Of a stretch of DNA of 32,000 bases, positions 2,776 to 18,518 are shown one piece after another (position 1 is the first letter of the stretch; every line of letters starts with the position of its first letter). The notes below the pieces were generated by a model. That model searched no databases, was not told the DNA's origin, and saw only the letters and a list, made by a program, of their open reading frames with translations. Position numbers and translations under genes: made by a program. Source of the DNA: Halomicrobium mukohataei DSM 12286 (GTDB lineage Archaea > Halobacteriota > Halobacteria > Halobacteriales > Haloarculaceae); the NCBI RefSeq assembly GCF_000023965.1, contig NC_013202.1, positions 2,040,001 through 2,072,000 of the forward strand, written 5' to 3'.

Positions 2776-4518
2776 ATGTACCGGGGCCTCGGCCGGCGCG
2801 GGCAGTCGTCGCCGATCGCCGTGATCCTCCTCGTCTCGATGGTCGTCGCCGGCTCGCTGGCCGTCGTGACGCTGGGTGCCCAGTCGCTGTCTGACACCCG
2901 AGAGACGATGGACGTCGAGCGCGCCGAGAAGGGCCTGACACAACTGGACTCGAACGTCGCGATGGTCGCGCTGGGGAGTGCCGGCGGACAGGAGCTCTCG
3001 CTGTCGAGGACGGACGGGGCCGCCTATCGGCTCCGGGACGACGCGGGGCGGATGACCGTCGCGGTGACGAACACGTCCAACGACTCCACGAAGACGGTGA
3101 TGAACGCGACGCTCGGCTCGATCGCCTACGAGAACGACGGCCGCTCGGTCGCGTACCAGGGCGGCGGCGTCTGGAAGACGGACGGCGACGGCGGCTCGCT
3201 GATGGTCTCGCCGCCGGAGTTTCACTACCGGGACGCGACGCTGACGCTCCCGCTGGTGACCGTCTCCGGCGACGAGTCGCTCGACGGCCGGATCGCGGTT
3301 CGGCCGGGCGGTCGCTCGACGCAGCACTTTCCGAACGCCTCGGCCGACGAACAGTGGGTGAACCCGCTCGACGGCGGCCGCGTCAACGTGACCGTCAGGA
3401 GTGAGTACTACCGGGCGTGGGGCCGATTCTTCGAAGAGCGTACGGACGGCGAGGCCACGCTCGATCACGCGAACGAGACGGCGACGGTGACACTCGTCGT
3501 CCCGGCCGGGCCACAGACCGTCACGAACGCCGTCGCGGCCACGTCAGCGGGCGGCGAGATCGTACTGGCCGGAAGCGGCGATCAGACCCGGACCGACAGC
3601 TACAACTCCTCGAAAGGGACCGGGCTGTACGCCGACACGAAGACGCACAACGGGTCGATCCGGACGGCCGGCGACGTGACGGTCAAGGGCAACAGCCAGG
3701 TCAACGGCTCGCTGGCGTCGGGAGGCAAGGTGACCGTCAAAGGGAGCGGTGTGGTGACCCGAGACGCCGGTTACACCGACGACATCAAGGTCACCGGCAG
3801 CGGCGGTGTCGACGGCTCGATCGAACAGCTCTCGGGCGTCGACGGGATCGGTCCGATCGACGCCGTCGTCGATCGACGGTACGAGAACGCGACCGGGGAC
3901 AACGACAACGGCGACACGAGCGCGATCACGGGGACGACGCTGAGCGACGGCGACCAGACGCTCTCGGCCGGCGAGTACCACCTCGATCGGCTCGTTCTCG
4001 ACGGCGAGACGCTGACGCTGGACACCGGGACCGGCGGGACGATCAGTCTCGCGGTCCGTGACTACGTCCAGCTGAAGAACGACGGCCGAATCCACGTCGT
4101 CGGAAACGGGACGGTCCGCCTGTACGTCGACGGACAGGCGACGACGGCGTCGAACCACCACTTCTCGATCGAGGGAAGCGGCGGCCAGATCGACATCGAC
4201 GAGGGGCAGAACGCCTCCCAGTTCTGGCTCTACGGCCGCGAGGACTTCCAGGGACGGATCGACGGGACCTCCAGTGACACCCATCTGTTCGAGGGCGTCG
4301 TCTTCGCACCCGGCGGCACGCTCGGCAGTAGCTCGTTCACGGTCGAGAAAGGGAGCCTCTACGGCGGTGTCGTCACCGGGAGCGTCACGATGGACAACGG
4401 CGGACAGGTCCACTACGACCGGTCGCTGAAGCGGGTCAACGCCGTCCCGCCGGCCGAGAACATCGTCCGACTGACCTACCTCCACGTCTCGGAGATCGAG
4501 ATCGAAGCTCGCGACTGA
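2776..4518 (+). CDS. F1: class III signal peptide (type IV pilin-like) protein with C-terminal beta-helix-like repeat domain
   Basis: - 580 aa; N-terminus MYRGLGRRG|QSSPIAVILLVSMVVAGSLAVV.
- The next ~200 aa resemble E1, E2 and F2 (SIAYENDGRSVAYQGGGVWK...SPPEF).
- Middle: G/V/T-rich short repeats (GDVTVKGNSQVNGSLASGGKVTVKGSGVV) reminiscent of bactofilin or polymer-forming beta-helix repeats.
- The C-terminal region (GTVRLYVDG...FEGVVFAPGG...GGVVTG) is reminiscent of large bacterial Tad/T4P-associated pilin-like proteins. Confidence 0.8.
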   Translation: MYRGLGRRGQSSPIAVILLVSMVVAGSLAVVTLGAQSLSDTRETMDVERAEKGLTQLDSNVAMVALGSAGGQELSLSRTDGAAYRLRDDAGRMTVAVTNTSNDSTKTVMNATLGSIAYENDGRSVAYQGGGVWKTDGDGGSLMVSPPEFHYRDATLTLPLVTVSGDESLDGRIAVRPGGRSTQHFPNASADEQWVNPLDGGRVNVTVRSEYYRAWGRFFEERTDGEATLDHANETATVTLVVPAGPQTVTNAVAATSAGGEIVLAGSGDQTRTDSYNSSKGTGLYADTKTHNGSIRTAGDVTVKGNSQVNGSLASGGKVTVKGSGVVTRDAGYTDDIKVTGSGGVDGSIEQLSGVDGIGPIDAVVDRRYENATGDNDNGDTSAITGTTLSDGDQTLSAGEYHLDRLVLDGETLTLDTGTGGTISLAVRDYVQLKNDGRIHVVGNGTVRLYVDGQATTASNHHFSIEGSGGQIDIDEGQNASQFWLYGREDFQGRIDGTSSDTHLFEGVVFAPGGTLGSSSFTVEKGSLYGGVVTGSVTMDNGGQVHYDRSLKRVNAVPPAENIVRLTYLHVSEIEIEARD

Positions 4519-4519
4519 C

Positions 4520-4531
4520 ACTGTCGGCTGT
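4520..4531 (+). repeat. post-stop motif ACTGTCGGCTGT, copy 1 (1 nt after the F1 stop)
   Basis: Exact 12-mer. See copies at 4581-4592, 7434-7445 and 12946-12957. Confidence 0.7.
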
Positions 4532-4580
4532 ACCTTCGTGACGATATTCGCCGCCCGGGGTGGCGACATCGGTCACGCAC

Positions 4581-4592
4581 ACAGCCGACAGT
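4581..4592 (-). repeat. post-stop motif ACTGTCGGCTGT, copy 2 (15 nt after the E1 stop, minus strand)
   Basis: Exact 12-mer on the minus strand. On that strand it is followed after 29 nt by GCGAATATCGT (plus coordinates 4541-4551). Confidence 0.7.
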
Positions 4593-4607
4593 GGGACTCC
4601 TCGGCCG

Positions 4608-5360
4608 TCACAGCTCGATCGTCAGATCGATCTCGTGGACGGGAACGTACAGTCGATCCGGCGACGCCCCCGGCTCCAGGTAGCACGTCACGCTGGCCGC
4701 GTCCGGATCGGGCGCACACTCCGAGAGAGCTGTCTGCTCGAAGGCTCGCTGCCAGAGCTCCCACCGCGGCGACGTGACGGTCACGCTGACGTTCTCGAAC
4801 TGTCCACCGGAGACGGCGACGGCCGAGGACTGCTGGTTCGCGCGTACCAGGACGGTCGACCCGCCGACGCTCCGGACGCGCTCGGTCCGCGTCTGGACGA
4901 TCGGGACGAGCACACGGCCGTCTCGGGCCACCAGCGGCGGTTCGACGGTGTGAAATCCGCCATCACGGGAGACCTGAAACACCGCGCCACCCTCGTAGAC
5001 GAGCCGTTGCGCTCCGTCGCTCTCGTAGACGATCGGCCTGACCGATCGCTCGACGCTCTCGTTCCCGTCGGCGGTGTCGCGGTCGATTGCGGTCACGTTG
5101 ATCGTCACGTTCTCGCCCGTGTACAACTGTGCGCTGCCGAGGCTGACCTCGGTCGCTCGGCTCGGGGCCCCCCGCTGATGGATGTCGGCCATGTTGTCCG
5201 CCAGCACGTCGAAGGCCTGCTGTGCGTTGTTCGTCTGCTCGGCGTCCCGCACGTCCTGGAGCGTCCCCAGTCCGCTGACCGAGATGATCGCGACCGAGGC
5301 GACGACCATTCCGAACACGAGGGCGAACCCGAGCACCTCACTGACCGCGCGATCAGTCAT
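4608..5360 (-). CDS. E1: class III signal peptide (pilin-like) protein, same fold family as the F N-terminal domain
   Basis: 250 aa; MTDRA|VSEVLGFALVFGMVVASVAIISV; PIVYESDGAQRLVYEGGAVFQVSRDGGFHTVEPPLV parallels F1 and F2. The ATG at 5360 overlaps the D1 stop. I recall this family being annotated as a haloarchaeal DUF (possibly DUF7289); unverified. Confidence 0.85.
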   Translation of the reverse strand: MTDRAVSEVLGFALVFGMVVASVAIISVSGLGTLQDVRDAEQTNNAQQAFDVLADNMADIHQRGAPSRATEVSLGSAQLYTGENVTINVTAIDRDTADGNESVERSVRPIVYESDGAQRLVYEGGAVFQVSRDGGFHTVEPPLVARDGRVLVPIVQTRTERVRSVGGSTVLVRANQQSSAVAVSGGQFENVSVTVTSPRWELWQRAFEQTALSECAPDPDAASVTCYLEPGASPDRLYVPVHEIDLTIEL

Positions 5361-5796
5361 TGCTCACCCCCAGGGCGCTGCCGTCGTAGCCGACGACGAC
5401 CGTTCCGCCGTCGGCCGACGAGTTGCTGAGTGCCGTCCTGTTCTGAACGCCCACCGTGACACGGACCTCGGGACTGCTCGACCGCAGGCGGATCGTCGGT
5501 GACGGCGTCGCCACGAGTTCGAGTCGGTAGGTCGTGCCCGTGATTCGGGCGGGGAACTGCTGTTCGATCCGCACCGTCGCACCGGCCGGATCGTCACTGG
5601 CTCTGACGAGCCTGTCCGCGCGTGCGACGTCCGCCGACACCTGCTGGCCGATCACCTGGAGTTCGGATCTGACGACCTGGCGCTGGCGGTCCTCGACGAA
5701 GCTGCCGGACGCGACGAGCAGCCCCGTCACCAGCATGGTCGCGATCGCGAGGCTGAGAACGTAGCTGAACGTCGAGGAGACGGCGCGATCGTTCAC
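5353..5796 (-). CDS. D1: small class III signal peptide (pilin-like) protein
   Basis: 147 aa; GTG start at 5796 forming GTGA with the C1 stop; MNDRA|VSSTFSYVLSLAIATMLVTGLLV. Paralogue of D2 (13693-14139). Confidence 0.8.
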   Translation of the reverse strand: MNDRAVSSTFSYVLSLAIATMLVTGLLVASGSFVEDRQRQVVRSELQVIGQQVSADVARADRLVRASDDPAGATVRIEQQFPARITGTTYRLELVATPSPTIRLRSSSPEVRVTVGVQNRTALSNSSADGGTVVVGYDGSALGVSND

Positions 5797-6788
5797 GGCG
5801 GCTCACCCGGCGCGACCCGGATCGTCGTCTCGTAGCGCAGCTTCGCCCCGTCGTAGCGGTACGTGACGTTCGCGGCGTAGATGGCGGGCGTCGCGTACGG
5901 ATCGTCTCCGGTCGACGACGACGGCAGGTTCCCGTTGCTGGTGGCGTCGTCGCCGACGACCAGCGAGTAGTTGCCGGTCACCTCGTCGCCCTCCTCGTAG
6001 GCGATCTCGTAGGGTTCCGACACGCCCTCGCCGAACGACAGCGCCGGACACGGTGCTCCGTCGACGAGCCCCGCCGTCAGATCGACGTGGAAGTAGTCGA
6101 CCCCGTCGTCGACCGCACAGACACCCTGCCGTCCGGCACCGTCCTCGACGCCGATCTTGTAGGTCCCGTCGGCGGTGTCGTGGGTGACGTTCATGATCCA
6201 GGTCGCGCCCGCGCCGTCCTCGATCCGCACACGGAACTGGTCGGCCGGGCCGCCGAAGTTGCCCGTCCGGTTGACGCCGCTCACGTTCATCCTGTAGGCA
6301 CGCGTCTCCGCGACGCCCTGGGCGACGCGCCAGTCGACACTCGTCGCGTTGCCTTCGCTCGCGTTTTCGAACGAGGAGCCGCCGGGGGCGTCGTCCCTGA
6401 CTCTGGTCCCGTTCTCGATGTCGGTCGGCCCCGCGACGCTGACCACCTTCCCGCCCGAGGCGTGATGCGCTCCCGACAGCGCCGAGAGCGTCCCGACGCT
6501 CTCGTCGAGGCTCGTCGCCAGCGTCGTCGTGTCGCTGGCGTTGTGCGTGTTCGCGTACTCGATCGCGTGGCCGGTCGACTGCTCGATCGACTGGCGCACC
6601 AGCAACGCGTCGTCGCTGCCAGCCGTTTCGCCGCGGCTGGCGAGGTTCTCCGTGAAGATCGCCGAGTTGACGACCAGCGCCAGCATGACGAACGTGACTG
6701 CCATCACGAAGGCCGCCACCAGAATGACCTGTGCGCGGTCGTCGCCCAGCGAGCGACAGCGGCGACGCAGGCGGCTCAGATCCGCCAC
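5793..6788 (-). CDS. C1: class III signal peptide (pilin-like) protein
   Basis: 331 aa; GTG start at 6788 overlapping the B1 end; ...LGDDRA|QVILVAAFVMAVTFVMLALVV. Collinear with C2. Shares a Cys pair 23-24 residues apart near the C-terminal third. Confidence 0.8.
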   Translation of the reverse strand: MADLSRLRRRCRSLGDDRAQVILVAAFVMAVTFVMLALVVNSAIFTENLASRGETAGSDDALLVRQSIEQSTGHAIEYANTHNASDTTTLATSLDESVGTLSALSGAHHASGGKVVSVAGPTDIENGTRVRDDAPGGSSFENASEGNATSVDWRVAQGVAETRAYRMNVSGVNRTGNFGGPADQFRVRIEDGAGATWIMNVTHDTADGTYKIGVEDGAGRQGVCAVDDGVDYFHVDLTAGLVDGAPCPALSFGEGVSEPYEIAYEEGDEVTGNYSLVVGDDATSNGNLPSSSTGDDPYATPAIYAANVTYRYDGAKLRYETTIRVAPGEPP

Positions 6789-7384
6789 GCGACCACCTCC
6801 ACGCGGACCACGTTGTACACCGAGGTGCCGACCTGCTGGACGGGATAGCGACTCGCCGAACCGACCGTCACCGACTCGTTCGCGGTCTCGTCCGGTCGCA
6901 TCAGCGGATCGTCCGGCTCGAGTGTCACGGTCCGTGAGGCCGACACCGCGTTGTCGCTCGGCCGACCCCGGTAGATCATCCGCCGGGTGGCGATTCCGCC
7001 GCTCGGCCTGCGGTACCGGAGGTAGACGTTGTAGGAGATACTGCGCTCGTCGAGCGTCCGTTCCAGGATCTGCCCGAAGGTCGTGTCCGGCGGCTCGTTC
7101 GTGTAGAACCCGATGTCGGGCGCGCCGTGGAACCGACCGTCGGTGTCGTTCCAGTAGCGGACGCTCGTCGAGAGCGCGCCCCGGTCGGCCGCCGTCGCGA
7201 GCACGCCCTGCGCGACCGAACGCTGCTGGTTCTCGATGTGCTGGCTCGAGGTGCTGGCCGACAGCGGCGTCACTGCCGTCATCTGCATCGCGAAGACGAC
7301 GCTGCTCAACAGCAGCAGCCCCGCGATCACCGCTTCGAGCGTGTGGGCCTGCCCGCGGTCAGGACTCGTACTGCCGGGTGTCAC
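6776..7384 (-). CDS. B1: class III signal peptide (pilin-like) protein (start uncertain: GTG 7384 or ATG 7453)
   Basis: - DRG|QAHTLEAVIAGLLLLSSVVFAM matches B2 (MERG|QAYTLEGTIGAIIVVIAVLIGL); ends ...VVRVEVVAWRI.
- The ORF can extend to the ATG at 7453 (overlapping the A1 stop).
- However, 7385-7446 carries the same noncoding-type element found after the E1 stop, and would encode a basic, non-halophilic peptide.
- I therefore prefer the GTG at 7384, giving a 202-aa product. Confidence 0.7.
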   Translation of the reverse strand: MTPGSTSPDRGQAHTLEAVIAGLLLLSSVVFAMQMTAVTPLSASTSSQHIENQQRSVAQGVLATAADRGALSTSVRYWNDTDGRFHGAPDIGFYTNEPPDTTFGQILERTLDERSISYNVYLRYRRPSGGIATRRMIYRGRPSDNAVSASRTVTLEPDDPLMRPDETANESVTVGSASRYPVQQVGTSVYNVVRVEVVAWRI

Positions 7385-7433
7385 TGTTTCACGATATTCG
7401 CGACCACGGGACCGCAATATTCTGTACAGACGT

Positions 7434-7445
7434 ACAGCCGGCAGT
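7434..7445 (-). repeat. post-stop motif ACTGCCGGCTGT, copy 3 (1 nt after the A1 stop, minus strand)
   Basis: Matches the motif at 11 of 12 positions (13 of 14 if the following AC is included). On the minus strand it is followed after 32 nt by GCGAATATCGT (plus coordinates 7391-7401), the same arrangement as after the E1 stop. Confidence 0.65.
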
Positions 7446-7446
7446 A

Positions 7447-7989
7447 TCACCATAGTACGACCTCCAGCGTGACGACCTCGCGATTCAGCGACACCACTCG
7501 ACGCGCGGTCACCGACTCGTCCACGTCGGCCGTCGTCGGTTCGCCCGCCCGGAGAGACACGTCGCCACTCTCGCAGTCGCTCCGGTCCCGCAGCGACGCG
7601 GTGTCCGCGTCCCAGCACAGCGGACTCGCCCCCTCCCGGGCCGTCGTCCCGTTTCGCGTCACCGTGACGTTGACCCGCTGGCGGCTGTCCAGCCCCAGCC
7701 GCTCGTTCGTCGTCTCGCCCGCGAAGTGACAGCCACTCGCAGAGCGATTGTCGAAAAACACCGCCGTACACGTGCCGTTCAGGACCTTCGGACGCTCGGC
7801 GCTGCCCAGCGTCGCCCGCGAGAGATCGTCCGCCACCCTGTCGACGGCGACGGTCTCCTCCTGTGCCCCCGCGGTGAACGGCTCGACCACGCCGGGCACG
7901 AACAGGAAGACGAACAGCACGACGGCGAGGAAGAGACTCATACCGAACGCGAAATCCAACGTCGTCTGTCCGCGTGTGTGACCCCGCAT
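7447..7989 (-). CDS. A1: class III signal peptide (pilin-like) protein
   Basis: 180 aa; MRGHTRG|QTTLDFAFGMSLFLAVVLFVFLF; ends VVTLEVVLW. Paralogue of A2. First gene of the minus-strand array in cassette 1. Confidence 0.8.
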   Translation of the reverse strand: MRGHTRGQTTLDFAFGMSLFLAVVLFVFLFVPGVVEPFTAGAQEETVAVDRVADDLSRATLGSAERPKVLNGTCTAVFFDNRSASGCHFAGETTNERLGLDSRQRVNVTVTRNGTTAREGASPLCWDADTASLRDRSDCESGDVSLRAGEPTTADVDESVTARRVVSLNREVVTLEVVLW

Positions 7990-8167: not shown

Positions 8168-8239
8168 GGGCTCGTAGATCAGTGGTAGATCATCCCCCTG
8201 GCACGGGGAAGGCCCCGGGTTCAAATCCCGGCGAGTCCA
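8168..8239 (+). tRNA. tRNA-Ala (anticodon GGC)
   Basis: Hand-folded cloverleaf:
- Acceptor GGGCTCG/CGAGTCC with the G3:U70 alanine identity pair.
- D arm GATC-AGTGGTA-GATC.
- Anticodon arm TCCCC-CTGGCAC-GGGGA, anticodon GGC at 8200-8202.
- Variable loop AGGCC.
- T arm CCGGG-TTCAAAT-CCCGG.
- Discriminator A at 8239; CCA is not encoded. Confidence 0.9.
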
Positions 8240-8290
8240 CTATTCTGCGTCGCGAGCAAAATTCGCGAGCGGCGCGAATCGTCGTCGACA

Positions 8291-8306: not shown

Positions 8307-8345
8307 TGGAAGTCGCAGCGCCGAGCGCAGCGAGGTGACCGTCTT

Positions 8346-8372: not shown

Positions 8373-8706
8373 TCTGTAACTAAACGATGCTGGTGCCATC
8401 TTGAATCGCATTTTCGCTGAAATAACGTCTTTAGCGGAGCGATTGGCGTTTTCGAATGATCCTCAGAAAACGGAGATGCTAAGGAGAGCAAGCGGAGGTC
8501 CCGCAGTCTGGCGGTTCCTGAAAGGGAAGTCCGTCGCTAGTACGGCTCGTCTGTCGACGAGTATATCGATTCCCCGGCTCTCCCCAATGGAAGGTGCTGG
8601 CCATGAGCGATCCGGCCGAGACGTCCACGAGCCAGAGTGCGAGCATATTGCGGAGACAATCTGGGAAGTACCGTGATCACTCTGTGAGAGCACAGCTATG
8701 CCTCCC

Positions 8707-8728
8707 GATAGATTTAATCCTATCTATC
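8707..8728 (+). promoter_or_regulatory. F2 promoter: TATA box (TTTAAT, 8713-8718) embedded in the perfect 7-bp inverted repeat GATAGAT-N8-ATCTATC
   Basis: The TATA lies 26-35 nt upstream of the candidate F2 starts (8739 TTG, 8748 ATG). The palindrome arms flank the TATA, which suggests an operator overlapping the core promoter. Confidence 0.5.
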
Positions 8729-8747
8729 CGGTGGGTTTTTGTTCTCT

Positions 8748-11700
8748 ATGATACAATGCTGTGCTAGCGATCACTGGGAAAATATGTGGGGTCAATACGA
8801 ACTGGACGAACGCGGTGTCTCGAATCTTGTGGGTGTTATCCTGCTAGTAGCAATTTCCATAACGGGGGCGTTACTGATCCTTACAGCGGGTCAAACGACA
8901 ATTCAGGACACTCAAAACGAGCAGAACGCGGAAGTCGTATCGGACATGTTCAAACAGGTCGACTCGATGTTCCAGTCGGTACCACGAAACGAGAGCAACT
9001 CTGGATCACGATCGGTTGCGGTTCCAGAGAGTGTTCAGGGGTCAGTAAAGGCGAACAACGATACGACATATAGGATACGACTGAACGATAATCCGACCTG
9101 TGACACAGGTGTACAACCACTGGGATCAATGCAGTACGAGGAGGATGGCACGGTAGTCGGCTACGAAGGAGGGGGCGTTTGGGAGTCCAGAGAGGGTAGT
9201 ACAGTGATGGAGTCGCCGCCGGCACTCACGTACAAGGACGGAAGCCTCAACGTCCAGTTCCAGCGTGTGTCTGGAAACATCACTGACTCCAACGAAATTA
9301 CCGCACAAGTCAACGCTACGGACGAACGCGCGCTCAATGACGAACTCTCGGTACTACTGTACACGAATCTCACACCGTCGAACATCAGCAGTGCAACGTC
9401 GTACAGTCTGACGTGTGCGCCGGCACGACTTCAGAACGCCACTGTGTTCATCAATGACAGTCAGTTCGCTGGCGGGTGGGCACGCTACGCAGAGGACCGT
9501 TTTAATGACCGCCGTGTCGATGTCCAACCCAGCAACTCAGTGAGTCCACGCGAGAACGTTTCGATCACCTTCGAACTCGGTGATGTGTCGCTGCCAGAAT
9601 TCTCTGCTCGGAACGTGACCACGAAACGATACAGTGATACGGGCCCACTGTACGTCAACGCCACCGTCCAGAACGAGGGTGGACTGAGCAGTGAGCAAAC
9701 GGTGACGTTCACCTTCGAAGACCCGGGCGGTAACGAAGTCTCGACCGATTCGAGGGATGTTTCGCTCAACGGTGGTGAGTCAAAGCGAATGAAGTTCGAA
9801 GTCCCTGCTAGCGACTTGAGTTCGGTCACCGCTGGGACGTACGACGCAACGATCGAGACGGAAGACGAGTCAGAATCCAGGGCAGTTCAGTTCACGTCTG
9901 GGAATCACGTGCCAGAGTTCCAGATCACTTCTGTTTCAGCCCCCTCACAGGGACAGGTCGGCGACGACCTGACAGTTGACGTGACTGTCGAGAACCGCGG
10001 AAGTATGACCGGGACGCGAGCAGTCGCCTACGGGTTCGACGGGTCGACAGAGAATACGACAATGTTGCGCCTCCATCCCGGCCAGACGAAGACTCTGAGT
10101 TACCCCCTGTCGACGACTACAGACGGAAGCCACGACTGGACGGTCCAGACCGATGGCACTTCCGAGCAAGGAACTGTCTTTGTGGGGACGGGACCGACGT
10201 TCACCATCAGTGATACGGACGCACCGAAACATGCGGGCGCTGGCAACACCTTCTGGCTCAATGCCACGATTGGCAATACTGGTCAACTCAACGGCACGCG
10301 TGATATCAACCTCACGATCCGGAACGACACTAACGGGAATGTCGTCACGGACGAAGATCAAACTGTCAGCATCAACGGCACGATCGCTGACAGCAGCGAC
10401 GAGGCGACGGTCAACGCCTCGGGAACAATCACCACACCAGGGACTTACGAGTACAAAATCGACACGGGAGATATGGTCCAGACCGGCGGTTTCACTGTCG
10501 GACCGGCACGGTACCCGAATTTCATCGTCACGTCCCTGCGCTTCTCCGACGATCCCGTCGTGAAAGGTGATCAAGTCACCATCGAAGCAGACATCAAGAA
10601 TACTGGCCGTGTAGATGACACACAGCCTGTCAAGATCTCGACCGAGCGCGATATCTTGACGGCACCTAACCGACACGTCGATCCCGGCGACGTAGTGACG
10701 GTTAGTACTACTGTCGACGTCGCGTCACCGACGTTCGTCCTCGGAGAGGCCAACGAAATCACCGTCGAGACCGACAACAATACCGTCGCTCAGAATCTGG
10801 AGGTATTGGCCCAAGAGCCCATCGGCGAGACCGACGACGGACAGATCATCGCCAACGAACGTCTAGACGTTAGCGTCAGACTCCTCGGAGCAGAACTGGA
10901 AGGGAGCAACAGAGAATGGTGCAATCCCAGATACCGCTCGTGTCTCGGCAGCTTCCGGACAAACGGTGGCTACCAGCGTTACGGTATCATCAACGATCCC
11001 GTCGAAATGTCACTCCTGATCAACGGCCAAACGGAGAGTGATCTCTGGCAGTCACTGCCGGGTGATGGCGATGTGAATCACCCTGAAGCCGAACAGGAAC
11101 TTCTGAACGGTCAGAACCCGTACAACGAGACAGCCACCCTAGAGAAAGACGATCGGGCAATCGTGACTGCAACATCGTACCGCTGTAGTTATTACCAGTA
11201 CACGGATGTACGGTTCCCCGACCTCATCACGTTGGGTAACACCGAGCAAGACGCCGTCGGCAAAGAGTGCGCCAACCGTGGGAGGACACGGCTTTCGATA
11301 AACGGGAATGGCGAAGACGACAGAGTTGTCATAAGGAAGGACGGAGAGAGCATCCGCGGCGGCGAGGAGTTTGAGCCTCAGGCGGCAAACTACCAGCGCA
11401 ACGTCAAGCAGATGTTGCAGGGTCGCCTGAACGAGACCGGCCACCTTGACCTGTCGCCCGGCGAACGAGTGCTGATTTACGAACTCTCTGACCGAGACGC
11501 GACCATTGAACAAGCAAGCCAGTCAGGCGATCCCGACTACAACGACGCCCTCGTACTGTTCAAAGTCCTGTCGAAGAACCGCACTCTCTCGCCGCCGGCA
11601 TCCTACGAGATTACCGATCTTAGCGCACCGGCGAGCGTTCGACGCGGCGACTCCGAGACGATTACAGCGACCATCAACAACACCGGTGGACAGGAAGGTG

Positions 11701-12626
11701 AGACAGACATCCAGTTTGCATTCGGCGGTACGACTGTCGAGACAGAATCGACTGGAAAACTCGAACCCGGTGAGAAGACGACCGTAACCTTCGACGTTCC
11801 CACGGGATCGACTGGGACCTTCGGATACACCGTAACTGTCGCAGACGAGCCGACGGAAAATCGGGCAGGACAATTGACCGTCGGTGTGCCACGATCGCCC
11901 CACTTCCAAGTCACCCAGTTCACTCCCGACGCAACCGCTGTTGAACGGGGTGAGACGGTCGGGATCGAGACGACGATCACCAATGTCGGCGCCACAAGCG
12001 ACACTCAAACTGTCGAACTGCGCAACGTCACTGGTAGCAACGACACGGTCGTCGACACAGTATCTGGCGTGTCTCTGGCGGGCAACGCCGACACCACACT
12101 CCCTCTTGACCTTCCGACACACACCAATGGGACCATCCGGTATACGGTATCGACTGAGGACGACCGTGCGATCCCACAGCGAGCTTACGTCAACGAATCG
12201 CACGTTAAGATCAATCAGACTGAGGTTGGGCTGAGTACCTACAACGAGAGTGAACTCATCGAACGAAAGTCAGTGCCACGGATGACCGTGAAACTGAACA
12301 ATCGTGGCGGACTGGGAGACGACCGTGATGTCAAATTAACAATCACGAACCAGTCCGACGGCACTACTCACTCCGACACGACTACCGTAAGTGTCGGAGA
12401 CGGGGAAATAAAGCCACTGTACCCCGGATATGCTACGTTCGACACTTCCTCGATGGGGATCTCTGAAGGCTACTACAGTTACTCGATCGAGGTTGAAGAC
12501 GACGGGGCTCGCGAGGACTACTGGACGGGTGAACTATTCGTTCACGAAGATGGGACGGTCGAACAATCGTCTGACTCTGACTCGCCAATCAACGTCGACT
12601 CTGGACAGATCGAAGTCGGCAGCTGA
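8748..12626 (+). CDS. F2: giant class III signal peptide (pilin-like) adhesin candidate with 7 CARDB-like repeats
   Basis: - The ORF opens at TTG 8739; ATGs at 8748 and 8784 are alternative starts.
- Signal: ...YELDERG|VSNLVGVILLVAISITGALLIL.
- N-terminal domain like E and F1 (MQYEEDGTVVGYEGGGVWESREGSTVMESPPAL).
- Seven ~100-aa repeats start near 9595, 9911, 10194, 10515, 11595, 11898 and 12204, each beginning P-x-F-x-[IV]-T/S.
- Each repeat contains a [VI]-x-[VI]-x-N-x-G core (VNATVQNEGG, VDVTVENRGS, LNATIGNTGQ, IEADIKNTGR, ITATINNTGG, IETTITNVGA, VKLNNRGG), as in CARDB domains.
- The central 10810-11594 segment is unique and has 4 Cys. There are many N-x-S/T sequons. Confidence 0.85.
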   Translation: MIQCCASDHWENMWGQYELDERGVSNLVGVILLVAISITGALLILTAGQTTIQDTQNEQNAEVVSDMFKQVDSMFQSVPRNESNSGSRSVAVPESVQGSVKANNDTTYRIRLNDNPTCDTGVQPLGSMQYEEDGTVVGYEGGGVWESREGSTVMESPPALTYKDGSLNVQFQRVSGNITDSNEITAQVNATDERALNDELSVLLYTNLTPSNISSATSYSLTCAPARLQNATVFINDSQFAGGWARYAEDRFNDRRVDVQPSNSVSPRENVSITFELGDVSLPEFSARNVTTKRYSDTGPLYVNATVQNEGGLSSEQTVTFTFEDPGGNEVSTDSRDVSLNGGESKRMKFEVPASDLSSVTAGTYDATIETEDESESRAVQFTSGNHVPEFQITSVSAPSQGQVGDDLTVDVTVENRGSMTGTRAVAYGFDGSTENTTMLRLHPGQTKTLSYPLSTTTDGSHDWTVQTDGTSEQGTVFVGTGPTFTISDTDAPKHAGAGNTFWLNATIGNTGQLNGTRDINLTIRNDTNGNVVTDEDQTVSINGTIADSSDEATVNASGTITTPGTYEYKIDTGDMVQTGGFTVGPARYPNFIVTSLRFSDDPVVKGDQVTIEADIKNTGRVDDTQPVKISTERDILTAPNRHVDPGDVVTVSTTVDVASPTFVLGEANEITVETDNNTVAQNLEVLAQEPIGETDDGQIIANERLDVSVRLLGAELEGSNREWCNPRYRSCLGSFRTNGGYQRYGIINDPVEMSLLINGQTESDLWQSLPGDGDVNHPEAEQELLNGQNPYNETATLEKDDRAIVTATSYRCSYYQYTDVRFPDLITLGNTEQDAVGKECANRGRTRLSINGNGEDDRVVIRKDGESIRGGEEFEPQAANYQRNVKQMLQGRLNETGHLDLSPGERVLIYELSDRDATIEQASQSGDPDYNDALVLFKVLSKNRTLSPPASYEITDLSAPASVRRGDSETITATINNTGGQEGETDIQFAFGGTTVETESTGKLEPGEKTTVTFDVPTGSTGTFGYTVTVADEPTENRAGQLTVGVPRSPHFQVTQFTPDATAVERGETVGIETTITNVGATSDTQTVELRNVTGSNDTVVDTVSGVSLAGNADTTLPLDLPTHTNGTIRYTVSTEDDRAIPQRAYVNESHVKINQTEVGLSTYNESELIERKSVPRMTVKLNNRGGLGDDRDVKLTITNQSDGTTHSDTTTVSVGDGEIKPLYPGYATFDTSSMGISEGYYSYSIEVEDDGAREDYWTGELFVHEDGTVEQSSDSDSPINVDSGQIEVGS

Positions 12627-12945
12627 GCACTCGAAGCGGTTGGCTGTTGTCCTTGTTTCTGATGCTCTTTTCGATGCTCCTCTGCGTCGTGGCCTGATGC
12701 CCCCGCTCACAGCTACTGTCACGTCAGAAGCGACTGATCGACAGAATGCACTACTACAGTACGCCAGTGTCATCGGTACCCGAACCGCTAGCTCGCTGTC
12801 TCGTCACAGCAGCACGCGTCTCGGACAACGAAAGCACGATATCATCTCTCTGTTGAGCGACATCGACTGCTTCATACTGCCAGCAATCCGTTACGAAGCG
12901 TTTCTCGACTCCGAGATCCCGAACCCGAAATCCCTTGCAATAGTG

Positions 12946-12957: not shown

Positions 12958-12958
12958 A

Positions 12959-13690
12959 TCAGTTTACAGCTATTCCGACGGTCGTATTGTGGACGACAGC
13001 TCGGTCAATCCCGTCACAGGTGTATCGTCCGTTCCCGCCGTTCCATCTCGGAAGTTCCGACTCGAACAGACGCTCCCAGGCGTCGGTGTGTCGTGTGTTT
13101 CGAACGTTTACACTCACGTTCTTTACACCTTTATCTGGACTTAGCGGCGTGATCGACTCGCGGTTCTGTGCGTTCGCTCGCACTGTTACGGGACCGTCGC
13201 TACTCTGGCTCACCTGACCGTTGATCCTGACCAACGAGACGTGAGCCGTGTCACTCCCACAGCGCAGTGCCGGTGTACCCGTCACGACTTCGCCGTTCGG
13301 TTGGCTGCGGAACGTGGCACCAGCCGTGTATATAAATCGTGTCCCACTGTCGGTTCGACGGACGAAGCTCTCGACTGGCACGGTTTCGTTGGTGTAGCTG
13401 TCGTCCTCGTAGCCGATCTCGATTCGTATCTCGGCGTCGGCAGTCTGGAGTCGGTCGCCGCTGAGCTCTAGCCGCTGGACGTGCTGTGGGGCTCTGTTGT
13501 CTCGGACTGCCCCGACTCCCCTCGCAAAACTGGTCATCGATCGCTCTGCTGTGTTCGCCTGTGCACTATCACTGATATCTTCGACGGCTTCGACACCGTA
13601 GACTCCGGTGAAGCCGACCGACGTAATAATGATCGTGAACACGAGAGTAAATGCTAACGTATCCGAGACGGCGCGGTCGGTTCCGGTCAT
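12959..13690 (-). CDS. E2: class III signal peptide (pilin-like) protein
   Basis: ORF 12959..13717 trimmed to the ATG at 13690 (2 nt after the D2 stop); 243 aa; MTGTDRA|VSDTLAFTLVFTIIITSVGF; FIYTAGATFRSQPNGEVVTGTPAL parallels E1. Confidence 0.85.
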   Translation of the reverse strand: MTGTDRAVSDTLAFTLVFTIIITSVGFTGVYGVEAVEDISDSAQANTAERSMTSFARGVGAVRDNRAPQHVQRLELSGDRLQTADAEIRIEIGYEDDSYTNETVPVESFVRRTDSGTRFIYTAGATFRSQPNGEVVTGTPALRCGSDTAHVSLVRINGQVSQSSDGPVTVRANAQNRESITPLSPDKGVKNVSVNVRNTRHTDAWERLFESELPRWNGGNGRYTCDGIDRAVVHNTTVGIAVN

Positions 13691-13692
13691 AA

Positions 13693-14139
13693 TTAGGGAT
13701 CCCTCAATTCGAGACACGGTTCCGAAACGTCGAAAACGACGTTGATTTTCCCGCCATCAACAGCACTCGCACAGACACTGCTCTCGTTCTCGAACCGATA
13801 GACGACGGTGCGTTGTGACTCTCCGGTCGCTTCGAGTACTAGAGTCGACTTCGGGGAGTCTGGTTCTAGAACCACGTCGTAGGTCCGCCCTCCGACCCGC
13901 GCCGGATGAGTAGTAGTGTAGCTCAGGTCCGCATCGACACCAGTGGTGTTGAACTGGTCCATACTGACGAGTTCACTCGTGACTGCGCTACCAACGTTCT
14001 CGAGCCCGTTTTCGACGACGTATGATCGCTGGTCGTCTAGTAGCCCACCAGCACCCACGAGTAAGCCCGTGATCATGATTGCCGAAATACCGATCGTCAG
14101 AGCGTGTGTGACGGCCGGCGTCACTGCACGGTTGTCCAT
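13693..14139 (-). CDS. D2: small class III signal peptide (pilin-like) protein
   Basis: 148 aa from the ATG at 14139 (a TTG at 14142 is also possible); MDNRA|VTPAVTHALTIGISAIMITGLLV. Paralogue of D1. Its start overlaps the C2 stop by 1 nt (TGATG). Confidence 0.85.
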   Translation of the reverse strand: MDNRAVTPAVTHALTIGISAIMITGLLVGAGGLLDDQRSYVVENGLENVGSAVTSELVSMDQFNTTGVDADLSYTTTHPARVGGRTYDVVLEPDSPKSTLVLEATGESQRTVVYRFENESSVCASAVDGGKINVVFDVSEPCLELRDP

Positions 14140-15050
14140 CAAGATCCCGCCTCCCCAACGGCGAAAGTGCGGTTGTACGCCGTCGACGGGCTACGATACT
14201 TGTAATCGATGCCCGGATACAGAATTCGTTCACGGGTGCCTGCAAAGTTACCTGTATTGACTGAGCCACCGACGACGGCAATCTCGTATCCACCCTCGGC
14301 TCTGTTACCCTTTTCGAACTCGATAGTGTACGGGCCGTCTAGCGCATCAGTGAACGACGTGAACGTACAACTGGGGGGTGTCATGGCATCTTCGCCATCG
14401 ATCAAGTTCAGTTCGATATCGTCGGCATCCGACCGCCTACATGCTGTATTCGTCGATGTCGGCGTTTCGACGACGACATCAACATCGTCTGGGCCTGGCC
14501 CAGCTACTGGCACTCCCTCGAGCTTGAGTCTCCATTCGTCTCCCGCAGGGTTGCTGACGACGACTTGGAACGACGTTCCGCCAGTTTTGACGGAAGACTC
14601 GTTGAGCCAGAACTGTGACACGGTTTCCGCATCGGTGACCAAGTCCCAGCTGGGCCGCCTGGGACTCGTTTGTTTCCGGTACGGGTCATCCGACTGTGTC
14701 ATTACTGTTTCGTTGACCGACGCCGCCAGGTTGAGCGTGACGTTCGTGTACGTTGCCCCGCCTGCCGCCGTCATGTTCTCTGAGTAGTTCTGGTACGTCG
14801 AGACGTTCTCGCGTAGCGCCTCCTGATACTCCGATCGGTCTGTTCCGTTTCGGACTCTCATATCGAGCCCATAGAGGGCAGCCCGCGTCTCGGCTTCCGC
14901 CTGTGCTGCCTGGTCGATGGCGTCAGTCTGAGCGTTAGATCCTATGGTGTCGGTGTACTGGAGGTCATTCAGTTGGATTACGACGCCGACGATGACGACC
15001 GAAAAGAGGATTGCTCCGACGAGCAAGAGCTGGCCACGTTCGGCTACCAT
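14139..15050 (-). CDS. C2: class III signal peptide (pilin-like) protein
   Basis: 303 aa; MVAERG|QLLLVGAILFSVVIVGVVI. Collinear with C1 and keeps the conserved Cys pair (ACRRSD...PPSC). Overlaps the B2 end by 7 nt. Confidence 0.85.
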   Translation of the reverse strand: MVAERGQLLLVGAILFSVVIVGVVIQLNDLQYTDTIGSNAQTDAIDQAAQAEAETRAALYGLDMRVRNGTDRSEYQEALRENVSTYQNYSENMTAAGGATYTNVTLNLAASVNETVMTQSDDPYRKQTSPRRPSWDLVTDAETVSQFWLNESSVKTGGTSFQVVVSNPAGDEWRLKLEGVPVAGPGPDDVDVVVETPTSTNTACRRSDADDIELNLIDGEDAMTPPSCTFTSFTDALDGPYTIEFEKGNRAEGGYEIAVVGGSVNTGNFAGTRERILYPGIDYKYRSPSTAYNRTFAVGEAGS

Positions 15051-15622
15051 ACGACCAGTCGAACCTCCACGATGTTGTATAGTGGGGAGTCCTCGTCGAC
15101 ATCTGGGATCTTGAACGCTCCCTCACTAATCTCGTATCCTGCTGTCCCACAGCCGTTCCCGAACTGGATCGTCTGATCGTCGTAGAGAGTGATCCGCTGG
15201 GTCCCGACCGCGGTGGTCCGGCCGGGCGAAGCGAGCGCCTGGTTCTCACTGGTCGAGATCACCCGCTCTGTGCGATCGTCGACAGAGTCGTTCCAGTAGC
15301 TCAGATAGAGGTTGTAGTTTCGGTTTTGCCTATCGAAGGTGTGATTCAGCATCTTCTCAAAGCGAGCGTTCCTGTCGCTCTCGACCGTCCCGTCGACAAC
15401 TGATTTGTCTGCACCCCAACACCGAACGACTTCCGACAGCGCACCTGTTTCGGCACCTACGGTCAGCACGTCTTCGCTCTGGGTACTGAGTTGCTCCGAG
15501 ACTTGATCCTGTTGACTGTTCAACTGTCCCGTGTCGACTGCTTGGAGGCCGATCAACACAGCGATTACGACGATGATGGCACCGATTGTCCCTTCCAGCG
15601 TGTACGCCTGTCCCCGTTCCAT
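15044..15622 (-). CDS. B2: class III signal peptide (pilin-like) protein
   Basis: 192 aa; MERG|QAYTLEGTIGAIIVVIAVLIGL; ends IVEVRLVVW. Paralogue of B1. Confidence 0.85.
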   Translation of the reverse strand: MERGQAYTLEGTIGAIIVVIAVLIGLQAVDTGQLNSQQDQVSEQLSTQSEDVLTVGAETGALSEVVRCWGADKSVVDGTVESDRNARFEKMLNHTFDRQNRNYNLYLSYWNDSVDDRTERVISTSENQALASPGRTTAVGTQRITLYDDQTIQFGNGCGTAGYEISEGAFKIPDVDEDSPLYNIVEVRLVVW

Positions 15623-15624
15623 CG

Positions 15625-16170
15625 TTACCAGACCCTCACGACTAGCAGACAGTTGCTCGAACAGATTGTGCTCTCGTCTTCGAGGGTAACCACCCTCGCT
15701 GTACTGGCTGCCCCGTCCTGGTTCTTATAAGCTTCACCCCAAGTCAGTTCTCCGGATATTCCTGTGGCTGGTTTTCGAGAACCATCCGCAAGAGCGTCGC
15801 TGCCGACGACTGTGACGTTGATCGATAGATTGATGCGTCGGTCTGTGGCCACGTCTAGCCCAGCACCGGCTCGCAACCGGTCCAGAGAGTCGGTATCCCG
15901 GTTGAGTGATTGCTCGATCCCGTCAGACGAATCGTACCGCAAGATATTGTCTTTGTCTTCGACGCTGTAGTTCTCGACGACGTAGGAGGCGACTCGGTCC
16001 GCGGACTCTTGTACGTCTCCGCTGACCGGGCGGTCGTACGTCGTTACGACGCTGTTCTGTATGAAAACGAAGGTCGCAATGATCGTCAGCAACAGAACCG
16101 CAACCCCAACCGCAAAGTCCTGCGGTGTCTGTCCACGGTCGTTCGTCGGCTTGTCTTTCCGTACTGTCAA
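15625..16170 (-). CDS. A2: class III signal peptide (pilin-like) protein (start uncertain: TTG 16170 or ATG 16314)
   Basis: ...KPTNDRG|QTPQDFAVGVAVLLLTIIATFVFI; ends CLLVVRVW. The ORF runs up to the ATG at 16314, but that adds 48 basic residues with no counterpart in A1. A TTG at 16170, preceded by GGGGGGAG, gives 181 aa, matching A1 (180 aa). Confidence 0.7.
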   Translation of the reverse strand: MTVRKDKPTNDRGQTPQDFAVGVAVLLLTIIATFVFIQNSVVTTYDRPVSGDVQESADRVASYVVENYSVEDKDNILRYDSSDGIEQSLNRDTDSLDRLRAGAGLDVATDRRINLSINVTVVGSDALADGSRKPATGISGELTWGEAYKNQDGAASTARVVTLEDESTICSSNCLLVVRVW

Positions 16171-16478
16171 TCTTACTCCCCCCACAAATGCGAGCGGATG
16201 GCTGATCCGCCGTCGTACCGCTCGCTTCGTAGCTGCCCCCCGTCGCAGTTCTGCTGGCTGCTGAACTCTCTCAACAACTGTCCGCAACTTCTGCACAGCG
16301 TCCCGAGCCAGCATTGTACTCTCGACATATTCTATCCACGACGGGGCCTGTTGTCACGCACCCAGAAGATGCGTTCGAGTTGATTCAAAATTTGCCCGTC
16401 GGATTATTAGTGTTTTGTTACCATAGCGATGTGAAAGGGAACTGCTCGTGTTGAATCTACGATTCGTGAGGTCTGGTG

Positions 16479-18518
16479 CTATCCGACCGCGATCCAGGTG
16501 ATGAGCGCGATCGTCGGGAGGATCACCGCGAACTTCACTCCCGAGATGATGTTCACGTCCCGGATGTACCCCGCGATGAACGACGAGAGGAGCGCCTGCA
16601 GCGTGACGGCGTGGAAGAACAGCAACGAGAGCAGGTCCGTGTCGACGTTGCCGCCGAAGCTCTGCCCGGTCGCGCCACTTCCCCCCGCACCGGCCGCGCT
16701 CTCGGACAGTCCCGCCATCACGTCGAGGAACTGAGTCTTCAGCAGTGCCATCACGCCGAGCAGCGTCAGGTACGTCATGAGGATGATGACGACCTGCATT
16801 CGGGTCCGGGCGATCCGCTCGCGGTCGATGTCGTCCTGATTCTCCGAGGCCTGTGCCGCCGTCGAGAGCACGTTCTGGATCTGGCTGGACGCTTCCTGTG
16901 CCTCGCTGATGAGCTTGACCGTCCGGGCGAGTCGCGGGACGTGGTACTTGTTGTTGAACTCCCTGAGGGCGTCTTTGAGGCTGGTGCCGTAGTTGACCTT
17001 CGCGTGCATGATCTCGAACTCCTCCGAGAGCTTGCCTCCCGATGTCGTCGAGACCACCTGTACGGACTCCAGCAGCGTCATGCCCGTGTCGTTCGCGCTG
17101 GCGAGTTTCCTGAGGTTCTCCGAGAGACTGCCGATGATCGTCTTGCGCGAGCGGACGTTCCACTCGTAGAAGATCGCTAGCGGGAGCAGGTTGATGTACA
17201 GTGGCACGTACACCCAGAAGAACGTCCCGAGCACTGGTCGAGCGATCATCCCGTCGAGGCTCATCGGTGCGAGATCGAACACGACGACCAGCAGCAACGC
17301 GACGATCGTCACGGGGACCGTCACGCCGAGCACGAACAGCGGGTGATCGCGGAAGAACAGGTCCGGGCGCTTGAGCACCTGCATGAACTCGTAGGTCCCT
17401 TCGCGGCTCTTGATGCGGTCGAAGATCGTGTACTGGCCGGTGTAGTTCTCGACCAGTCCGAGGTTCAGAAAGCCCAGCCCGTCGTCGACGACGAAGTCGT
17501 CGTCCTTGCCGTCGGGCCGCAAGTAGCCGTCGCCGACCTCGTCTCGGGTCACCGTCGAGACGAGCACGAGGAAGCCGGCACCGGTCAGCGGGATCAGCCC
17601 GTAGACCGTGCCATAGAGGAGCCGGTTCTGCGCGTCGCCCATCATCGACATGATGACGAGGATGATGATGAGCAAGAGCGGAAACAGCGACAGGGTCATG
17701 TACATCTCCCCGAACAGTTCGAGGGTGTCGAGCATCTTCTGCTGTTCCTGCTTTGCGGTCCGCATGTGCTTGTCCTTCTGGTCTTCGAGGAAGGAGGTCA
17801 TGTCCCCGCCGGAGTTGATGATCGAGAGCATGTCGGTCAGGAACTGCGAGAGCTCGTCCGACGGCGTCTCGAGTGCCTGATTGCGGATCGCGGTCCGGTA
17901 GTCAGTATCGAAGTACTCCGTCTCCAAGACGATCGACTGGAACTCCTTGGCACACTCCCCGTAGGTGTCGTCGGCCTTGGCCATCGCCTGGAGAATCTCC
18001 AACTGGTTGAGCCCCCCGACCGACAGCGCGTACATGAACGAGATCGAGTCCGACAGCAGGACGTTCACCTCCCGCTCGCGTGCGTTGGCCCGGAAGTACG
18101 GGATCGAGACCAGCGATCCGAAGCCGATACCGAAGCCGATGACACCGAACACCAGCCCGGTGACCAGGATCAGCGCCGGGATCTTGATCACGTCGAGCGC
18201 GGCCGAGACCCCCTCTGGCAGTGGGATCCCGATGAACGTCGGTGCCTCGGCTCCAGTGCCGCCCAGCAGGAAGGTGACGCCGAGGTAGCCGATCAGCGTG
18301 CCCACGAGCCACAGCGCCAGTCCCGAGATGACGCCGATCGCCAGCGCGCGTGCGAGGAACATCTCGACGTTGTCGGCCATCCGGGCCTGTGCGAGCTTCT
18401 TCTCGACGTTCCTGACGAAGTCGCCGTCCTCGTTGAACAGCCACTGGAAGAGGGGATAGAACGTGTCCCCGAGCGCGCCACCCGAGAGCTGTCGCTGGCC
18501 GCGCGTGTCGAGGCTCAT
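16479..18518 (-). CDS. pilC: type IV pilus/archaellum-family membrane platform protein (PilC/TadC/FlaJ-like, T2SS protein F family)
   Basis: ORF 16479..19040 trimmed to the ATG at 18518, which overlaps the pilB stop (ATGA). 679 aa, polytopic, with two large cytoplasmic helical domains separated by TM clusters, as in FlaJ/TadC-type proteins. Immediately downstream of the ATPase gene. Confidence 0.85.
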   Translation of the reverse strand: MSLDTRGQRQLSGGALGDTFYPLFQWLFNEDGDFVRNVEKKLAQARMADNVEMFLARALAIGVISGLALWLVGTLIGYLGVTFLLGGTGAEAPTFIGIPLPEGVSAALDVIKIPALILVTGLVFGVIGFGIGFGSLVSIPYFRANAREREVNVLLSDSISFMYALSVGGLNQLEILQAMAKADDTYGECAKEFQSIVLETEYFDTDYRTAIRNQALETPSDELSQFLTDMLSIINSGGDMTSFLEDQKDKHMRTAKQEQQKMLDTLELFGEMYMTLSLFPLLLIIILVIMSMMGDAQNRLLYGTVYGLIPLTGAGFLVLVSTVTRDEVGDGYLRPDGKDDDFVVDDGLGFLNLGLVENYTGQYTIFDRIKSREGTYEFMQVLKRPDLFFRDHPLFVLGVTVPVTIVALLLVVVFDLAPMSLDGMIARPVLGTFFWVYVPLYINLLPLAIFYEWNVRSRKTIIGSLSENLRKLASANDTGMTLLESVQVVSTTSGGKLSEEFEIMHAKVNYGTSLKDALREFNNKYHVPRLARTVKLISEAQEASSQIQNVLSTAAQASENQDDIDRERIARTRMQVVIILMTYLTLLGVMALLKTQFLDVMAGLSESAAGAGGSGATGQSFGGNVDTDLLSLLFFHAVTLQALLSSFIAGYIRDVNIISGVKFAVILPTIALITWIAVG

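Follow-up and report, generated by a model that had tools for sequence, protein, structure and literature searches.

Little is understood of how archaeal type IV pili recognise their targets, and in haloarchaeal pil operons the minor pilins carry no annotation beyond domains of unknown function (DUFs). A 32,000-nucleotide stretch of the Halomicrobium mukohataei DSM 12286 genome (NC_013202.1, positions 2,040,001 to 2,072,000; hereafter the window, with positions counted from its first letter) encodes a 1280-residue pilin-like protein in which seven immunoglobulin (Ig)-like repeats flank a central domain, four before it and three after. The gene is the conserved sixth pilin-like gene beside pilB, pilC and five small pilin-like genes. 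We favour, with somewhat better than even confidence, the reading that its product serves a haloarchaeal type IV pilus-like system as a modular minor pilin and presents a predicted glycan-binding domain, and we consider it a good candidate for a pilus-carried sugar-binding adhesin.

The gene lies in an intact open reading frame (8739..12626, plus strand, in the list of open reading frames). A 1292-residue "DUF7289 family protein" of H. katesii (Haloarculaceae) is 99% identical to its product, and the NCBI start of that protein corresponds to the ATG at 8748. The ATG at 8784 (MWGQYELDERG/VS...) is the point from which the 46-48% identical orthologues P0003 and P0004 align, their own starts lying ~10 residues ahead of a conserved D-E-R-G-V-S. 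Because the orthologue N-termini align there, we consider 8784 the likelier start and number residues from it. The mature protein would have a mass of ~137 kDa and a pI of 4.3. One relative, P0002 of Halomicrobium sp. IBSBa (1167 aa, 78% identical), begins at the equivalent of residue 115, without signal and helix, probably because its start was called wrongly or because of a frameshift or a fault in the contig.

The N-terminus is of the pilin type. As a preliminary description of the locus had proposed, it carries a class III signal (...DER10-G11/V12-S13-NLVGVILLVAISITGALLIL), followed by a hydrophobic segment, aa 12-38, that is the sole hydrophobic window of the protein; R10 and S13 are invariant among 34 family members. 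A hydropathy scan for a C-terminal membrane anchor shows no hydrophobic segment beyond this one. DUF7289 (PF23960) matches aa 10-176 at 58.5 bits (gathering cutoff, 27) and also matches three other proteins of the window, F1 (92 bits), E1 (264 bits) and E2 (124 bits), which bears out the earlier observation of a ~200-aa domain common to all four. In an AlphaFold2 model of aa 1-272 built with 20 aligned relatives (pLDDT 85, pTM 0.78), a helix at residues 14-65 precedes a beta-rich head, so that the modelled region has the "lollipop" shape of a pilin, a ~50-residue helix bearing a globular head. A disulfide is possible within the head, where C106 (nearly invariant) and C211 (in a C-x-P context) form a conserved pair.

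The central domain had been described as a unique insert of ~260 aa; it proves to be a conserved family domain, present in 47 clusters and 38 species. Because word-index homologue searches recovered almost nothing (the N-terminal domain returned no protein, not even the query itself, and the insert alignment returned two), we relied on an exhaustive HMMER search of aa 677-935 against 1.84 billion representatives, which yielded the 47 clusters; the species count comes from a scan of one genome per species. About 25 of the clusters hold proteins of 1257-1325 aa with the domain at ~680-930 and the architecture described here, and another group holds proteins of ~500 aa in which only the pilin domain and the central domain are present, adjoining one another. 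Among matches whose N-terminus is complete, nearly all begin with a signal of class III type. All named proteins with the domain are haloarchaeal and are annotated as hypothetical, DUF7289 or CARDB only. In sequence terms, the central domain is the defining module of this protein family, and it is likely to be the binding domain.

In the species scan, 19 complete long forms come from Haloarcula, Halorientalis, unclassified Halobacteria and haloarchaeal metagenome-assembled genomes (MAGs), to which the window adds Halomicrobium. Short forms occur in Haloarchaeobius, Halorussus, Haladaptatus, Halomicrococcus, Halobaculum and one Haloferax, and a cluster look-up adds Halorubrum. Three further entries belong to neither class: a Halapricum gene truncated by its contig, and two MAG forms, one of 688 aa from Haladaptatus and one of 1048 aa. 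Haloarchaeobius sp. DFWS5 carries two short-form genes in tandem (522 and 492 aa; L026, 7552-10699). A 1048-aa protein on an uncultured Halobacteriales contig (L039, 5757-8903) shows similarity to the lectin-like domain as well as to the DUF7305-type C-terminus of F1, and may be a chimeric architecture. A tblastn search against plasmids gave domain-level matches only and no plasmid-borne copy of the gene.

Three independent, individually weak results concordantly link the central domain to the lectin LecB (PA-IIL). A profile search of all PDB sequences aligned the segment sGDPDYNDAVV with LecB EDSTDNDYNDAVVV. Comparison of the family profile with LecB by hhalign gave a probability of 65% and a pairwise E-value of 6e-5 over 36 columns (the LecB sequence used agrees with the PDB segment in the profile-search alignment). 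A structural model of the domain, mostly beta (pLDDT 89, pTM 0.87), was compared by Foldseek with 350,542 PDB chains, among which BclA ranked at the top (E 0.024, prob 0.94), followed by LecB; matches to the two lectins have E-values of 0.02-0.1 and TM scores of 0.52-0.60 on lectin length and 0.28-0.30 on query length, with TNF/C1q-like jelly rolls closely behind. Against viral structures, the same model found only weak C1q/TNF-like tail-fibre heads.

In LecB, D99, D101, N103 and D104, together with E95, N21 and G114 of the neighbouring subunit, hold two sugar-bridging calcium ions (PMC8752737). The profile and hhalign alignments both place D916, D918, N920 and D921 of the central domain opposite the first four of these ligands, and the four residues are conserved in 39, 46, 47 and 47 of 47 sequences, respectively (83-100%; the unbiased hit set comprised 50 sequences, with counts given out of 47). 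In this set, no position of the domain other than the invariant E900 and Q871 is as well conserved as these four. The D-P-D-Y-N-D site is probably calcium-binding and probably glycan-binding, by a LecB-like mechanism; membership of the LecB family is not established. Like LecB/PA-IIL of Pseudomonas and BclA (BC2L-A) of Burkholderia, which are the best structural neighbours of its model, the domain has a D-x-D-Y-N-D-A-V-V loop followed by a beta strand. Those lectins, however, are soluble oligomers of 114-128 aa whose sugar site is completed by the C-terminus of the neighbouring subunit, whereas the haloarchaeal domain spans ~240-260 aa, is embedded in a longer protein, contains long insertions including a ~50-residue beta hairpin, and lacks a Pfam PA-IIL match. 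A conserved C801/C829 pair (ATSYxC ... xxC) could form a disulfide within the domain; C713 and C720 lie in a variable loop.

The protein might also be pilus-borne and its central domain not a lectin, with the D-P-D-Y-N-D loop binding calcium only for structural stability at high salt, or the domain docking a protein partner, be it another minor pilin, a secreted adhesin (as in CofB-CofJ) or a virus. Two findings speak against this: the domain's best-conserved residues are exactly those aligned to the sugar-bridging calcium ligands of LecB, and the structures ranked first and second for its model belong to a single family of two-calcium lectins. In its favour, the similarity to LecB is confined to ~36 aligned columns with a TM score of ~0.3 on query length, the domain is twice the size of LecB, protein-binding jelly rolls of the TNF/C1q type score nearly as well, and the LecB ligands Asn21 and Gly114' have no identified counterparts. 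We regard a pilus-borne protein with a non-lectin domain as possible but doubtful.

The genomic context places the protein beside pilus assembly machinery. The pilB-pilC-five-gene operon is convergent with the large gene, and each of its five small proteins, which we refer to as cassette 2, has an R-[GA]-[VQ] motif, shared with the large protein, and a hydrophobic stretch. The locus of the 46% identical orthologue has the same arrangement, down to the adjoining aminotransferase and AsnC genes. Of the 38 species loci, 22 have the gene abutting a pilB-pilC-five-gene operon, complete or cut by a contig end, and these include genera with only the ~500-aa short form; by this gene-order comparison, synteny with pilB/pilC is conserved across haloarchaeal genera, inside and outside Haloarculaceae. 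In several Haloarcula loci (L006, L008, L009, L011, L013-L016, L019 and L034), a phmmer search at E 1e-5 found neither cassette 2 nor pilB/pilC on the downstream side of the long gene, and the cassette there may be too divergent or the arrangement different.

The same machinery might serve a different end: the class III signal and PilB/PilC would act only in the placement of the large protein and its five small partners, and the former would be a cell-surface protein with a pilin-type anchor, held at the surface in a 'bindosome-like' assembly or a short pseudopilus, from which the Ig-like stalk would reach through the S-layer. The sugar-binding proteins of Sulfolobus, which bear class III signals, are a likeness to such an arrangement. 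It would fit the composition of each cassette, six different single-copy pilin-like proteins with none clearly PilA-like, as well as a mass of 137 kDa, too bulky for the body of a filament, and a lectin-like domain that sits mid-protein and not at the distal end. On the other side, the gene for a major pilin could lie outside this locus, as is the case for PilA1-6 and PilB3-C3 (PMC4858521), and bacterial modular pilins of similar design are proposed at pilus tips (PMC8179133). Further, deletion of pilB1 (pil-1 locus) and flaI in Halobacterium salinarum removed pili-like filaments (PMC4292770), and deletion of pilB1-pilC1 in Haloferax volcanii reduced adhesion (PMC6491452); these two loci may or may not be orthologous to that of the window. 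We consider a surface tether unlikely.

The repeats on both sides of the central domain would form the stalk. Seeded with the repeat at aa 936-1035, phmmer recovers six others (aa 291-373, 378-456, 472-530, 591-656, 1041-1127 and 1163-1241), the independent E-values running from 1.5e-6 to 3e-3, unlike self-BLAST of the protein, which left the repeats undetected. The preliminary description had counted four tandem repeats at 9595-10810 and three at 11595-12550, in agreement with our boundaries to within a few bases, and its assignment of the repeats to CARDB (Ig-like) domains holds in a Pfam scan, where the whole protein scores 78.4 bits against PF07705 (cutoff, 22.7; E 5e-22; 5 stretches). Scanned singly, R2 and R5 exceed the gathering score, R1, R3 and R6 fall just under it at ~18.5 bits (E ~2e-3), R4 is marginal at 13.7 bits and R7 has no CARDB match. 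The two motifs that had been attributed to every repeat are real but not universal: P-x-F-x-[IV]-[TS] occurs in four of the seven (0.03 expected), and the strict core [VI]x[VI]xNxG in one, with a relaxed form, [AV]x[VIL]xNxG, in six. The reported abundance of N-glycosylation sequons is borne out, with 30 against 15.8 ± 3.4 in shuffled sequences, a roughly twofold enrichment that none of 1000 shuffles reached. Among long family members the 4+3 repeat count is fixed, and mean identity is 35-38% in the pilin and central domains and 26-30% in the repeats.

Because the closest matches outside the family are CARDB-rich S8 proteases (P0005-P0010), we also weighed the possibility that the protein has nothing to do with pili: as a CARDB protein that is secreted or bound to the S-layer, it might assist a protease or give structure to the wall, and its adjacency to pil genes would be coincidental. 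The protease matches cover the repeats only, Pfam and NCBIfam scans found no catalytic domain in the protein (NCBIfam gave nothing relevant), its N-terminus is of the pilin type, and the pilB/pilC synteny is kept across several haloarchaeal genera in and out of Haloarculaceae; we judge such a protein very improbable.

If the protein is instead a modular minor pilin presenting a glycan-binding domain, a prepilin peptidase would cut after G11, and PilB/PilC would insert the alpha-1 helix into the filament. Because of the protein's size, the tip would be its most likely place, where it and the five small pilin-like proteins would make up a complex for initiation or for the tip, similar to the minor-pilin complexes of bacteria. 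Held out by an Ig-like stalk predicted to be heavily N-glycosylated, the central domain would sit ~15-20 nm off the filament, where the LecB-like acidic loop (D916, D918, N920, D921 and perhaps invariant E900) would bind calcium and, through calcium, a glycan, which could belong to a surface, a polymer or the S-layer of another cell. The outcome would be adhesion or cell-cell recognition. The idea of a pilin fused to an Ig-like stalk with a distal binding domain, put forward in the preliminary description, is thereby kept in part: a pilin-like N-terminus is indeed fused to a CARDB stalk, but the module is central, with four repeats before it and three after.

Several results weigh against this reading. 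On the pilin side, the curated N-terminal models score below their cutoffs, PF07790 (Pilin_N) reaching 11.5 bits (cutoff, 25.2) and the NCBIfam model TIGR02537 17.6 bits (cutoff, 20), with PF07790 present in the short relatives P0056 and P0057; and Foldseek of the DUF7289 model against the PDB found no solved pilin or other structure resembling the head, for which reason the pilin assignment rests on topology and context. No obvious major pilin lies within the window, and a central position of the domain, not a terminal one, is unusual for a tip adhesin. On the lectin side, the PDB profile match to LecB is weak (E 5.4), the Foldseek E-values for the lectins exceed 0.01 and are a weak signal alone, and Pfam assigned no family, PA-IIL and DUF4114 included, to the central domains of 18 members at E <= 10. 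No counterparts were identified in the domain for the Asn21 main chain of LecB or the neighbour's C-terminal Gly114, and invariant E900, the candidate for the role of Glu95, is set by hhalign opposite E86 of LecB and not E95.

Codon usage bears on how this pilin set came to stand beside pilB and pilC. GC content at third codon positions (GC3) is 0.63-0.70 in the large gene and the five cassette-2 genes, as against 0.86-0.92 in pilB, pilC, the paralogous cassette 1 and housekeeping genes (0.88-0.91, the native composition, for pilB and pilC). Codon usage in the six-gene set is thus foreign, and the break falls exactly between pilC and the DUF7287 gene. The corresponding low-GC block, 7990-16500, has a GC content of ~0.55-0.58, compared with 0.62-0.72 outside. 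The GC3 contrast is repeated in the orthologous locus L001 and is weaker in L010, L012, L038 and L007. A tRNA-Ala gene lies between cassette 1 and the large gene, just inside the edge of the low-GC3 module (~7990), and stands at the same junction in L010, L012 and L038. About 50 bases downstream of it is a short T-arm-like string, ggatttgaaccc, that was not called as RNA; a search for a second tRNA or att-like remnant near 8290-8350 found, by Rfam, only the tRNA-Ala.

The composition of the block suggests horizontal replacement of a pilin set. Because GC3 is low in all six pilin genes and breaks sharply at the pilC/DUF7287 boundary, the whole six-gene set appears to be an exchangeable module behind resident pilB-pilC; exchange of pilin sets behind a conserved motor was proposed in general terms by Makarova et al. 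(PMC4858521), and the codon-usage break between pilC and the pilins is direct sequence evidence for such modular exchange behind ATPase/platform pairs. In other Haloarculaceae with a detected cassette-1-like set, a DUF7305-type or a further DUF7289-like gene flanks that set, and the lectin-like type adjoins the pilB-pilC-linked cassette. A recent swap of the effector part alone between F1 and the large gene, which the preliminary description had suggested, was considered and rejected: elsewhere each large-subunit type stays beside its own cassette type, and it is the whole six-gene set that looks exchanged.

A bolder version of these ideas, which we think quite unlikely as a whole, is that the central domain founds a new archaeal calcium-dependent lectin family on type IV pili and that the six-gene set is a horizontally exchanged 'adhesion cassette' plugging into a resident PilB/PilC motor. 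If true, glycan-specific pilus binding would help to determine to which surfaces or haloarchaeal cells a strain adheres, as when partners are chosen for aggregation or mating. A parallel would be the glycan-dependent, species-specific recognition described for the Ups pili of Sulfolobales (PMC7064770).

What is newest and most useful here is the LecB-like domain on archaeal pilin-like proteins, widely conserved yet unannotated, a domain family missing from Pfam that this analysis defines. The large protein and its ~500-aa relatives offer a concrete candidate for a pilus-borne binding module, compact, confidently modelled and with a near-invariant acidic loop that can be mutated; one lineage, Haloarculaceae, has lengthened the protein by a fixed 4+3 set of Ig-like spacers. 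A literature search found no paper on DUF7289, on this architecture or on the family, in keeping with the earlier remark that an archaeal pilin of such size and architecture is not known to have been characterised experimentally.

Features of the large pilin-like gene and its neighbours in the window
Feature	Coordinates	Strand	Details	Basis
Modular pilin-like coding sequence	8784..12626	+	1280 aa, coordinates include stop codon; alternative annotated start 8748 gives 1292 aa	
Class III (prepilin-type) leader	8784..8816	+	aa 1-11, MWGQYELDERG; predicted cleavage after G11	
Hydrophobic N-terminal segment	8817..8978	+	aa 12-38, within predicted alpha-1 helix (model residues 14-65)	hydropathy, AlphaFold2
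DUF7289 pilin-like domain	8784..9593	+	aa 1-270; long helix and beta-rich head; conserved Cys106, Cys211	PF23960, alignment with F1, E1 and E2, model
CARDB-like Ig-fold repeats R1-R4	9594..10811	+	aa 271-676	Pfam, phmmer
Central beta-sandwich domain	10812..11588	+	aa 677-935 (259 aa; family ~240-260); candidate Ca-dependent lectin-like module	
D916-P-D918-Y-N920-D921 motif	11529..11546	+	aligned to LecB D99, D101, N103, D104	
CARDB-like repeats R5-R7	11589..12533	+	aa 936-1250; R7 divergent	Pfam, phmmer
Acidic C-terminal tail	12534..12623	+	30 aa	translation, hydropathy scan
tRNA-Ala(GGC)	8168..8240	+		ARAGORN; Rfam 70.5 bits
pilB and pilC, assembly machinery	16479..21010	-	upstream of cassette 2	
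pilB (T2SSE ATPase)	18515-21010	-		Pfam
pilC (T2SSF)	16479-18527	-		Pfam
Cassette 2	12959..16314	-	five small pilin-like genes	Pfam
Cassette 2 DUF7287	15625-16314	-		Pfam
Cassette 2 DUF7288	15044-15622	-		Pfam
Cassette 2 DUF7261	14139-15050	-		Pfam
Cassette 2 DUF7266	13693-14142	-		Pfam
Cassette 2 short DUF7289	12959-13717	-		Pfam
Cassette 1	2776..7989	both	paralogous, without own ATPase	Pfam
F1 (DUF7289 + DUF7305)	2776-4518	+	convergent to cassette-1 small genes	
Cassette 1 DUF7289	4608-5360	-		
Cassette 1 DUF7266	5353-5796	-		
Cassette 1 DUF7261	5793-6788	-		
Cassette 1 DUF7288	~6776-7360	-		
Cassette 1 DUF7287	7447-7989	-		

Other features of these loci stand apart from the large gene. F1 carries DUF7305 (129 bits) along with a repetitive sequence rich in G, S and V, and Haloarcula loci L012-L015 have two such genes in tandem. 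On the metagenomic orthologue contig L001, positions 1-9800 hold an integrase and pleolipovirus-type matches (VP3, HRPV envelope protein) in the place of cassette 1, and by these matches resemble a provirus that immediately precedes the large pilin gene. Within the window, a CheC-like chemotaxis phosphatase gene (26492-27094, plus strand) lies a few kb from the pil locus, and an open frame of at least 1124 aa that runs off the end (28628-32000, plus strand) encodes a large secreted protein with a signal-like N-terminus, DUF7827, a weak Big_13 match and an atypical GC3 of 0.71.

Among known pilus systems, the PilY1/PilC tip adhesins of bacterial type IVa pili act with a minor-pilin priming complex. 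They resemble the present locus in that the gene for a single large adhesin, here a putative one, accompanies those of four or five minor pilins, and they differ in that PilY1 is itself no pilin and docks by a beta-propeller, whereas the haloarchaeal protein carries its own pilin module. Closer to home, arCOG02911 is the predicted 'signature' minor pilin of euryarchaeal type IV pilus loci (250-550 aa), and unspecified adhesins are also predicted in archaeal pil loci (PMC4858521). Like the protein described here, arCOG02911 is FlaFind-positive, all-beta, duplication-prone and of variable length, and occurs in haloarchaeal pil loci; it probably corresponds to DUF7289, although a ~1280-aa architecture of four CARDB repeats, a lectin-like domain and three CARDB repeats, with this central domain, is not described for it (PMC4858521).

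In haloarchaea, pil operons that bring their own sets of pilins have been found to be transcribed and to have a part in adhesion (PMC4292770, PMC6491452). The pil-2 locus of Hbt. salinarum, with seven co-transcribed open reading frames, and pilB1-C1 of Hfx. volcanii are haloarchaea-specific and adhesion-linked and, compared by description only, resemble the window locus in their order of pilB, pilC and then small genes with class III signals; a large convergent sixth gene is not described for either (PMC4292770, PMC6491452).

The nearest parallel in design comes from bacterial modular pilins, in which a functional module is grafted onto a pilin and proposed to stand at the pilus tip and bind ligands there; in Streptococcus sanguinis, PilB carries a vWA module and PilC a glycan-binding lectin module (PMC8179133, PMC9934059). 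Both share with the haloarchaeal protein a pilin module (class III signal, alpha-1 helix, small head) joined to non-pilin modules, and both are encoded among other minor pilins. The S. sanguinis pilins are bacterial and have the IPR012902 N-methylation motif, whereas the haloarchaeal protein has an archaeal signal type and a DUF7289 head; the PilC lectin is concanavalin-A-like, whereas the putative haloarchaeal lectin is LecB-like. The haloarchaeal protein is also far larger than the S. sanguinis modular pilins, with seven Ig-like spacers that flank its putative binding domain on both sides.

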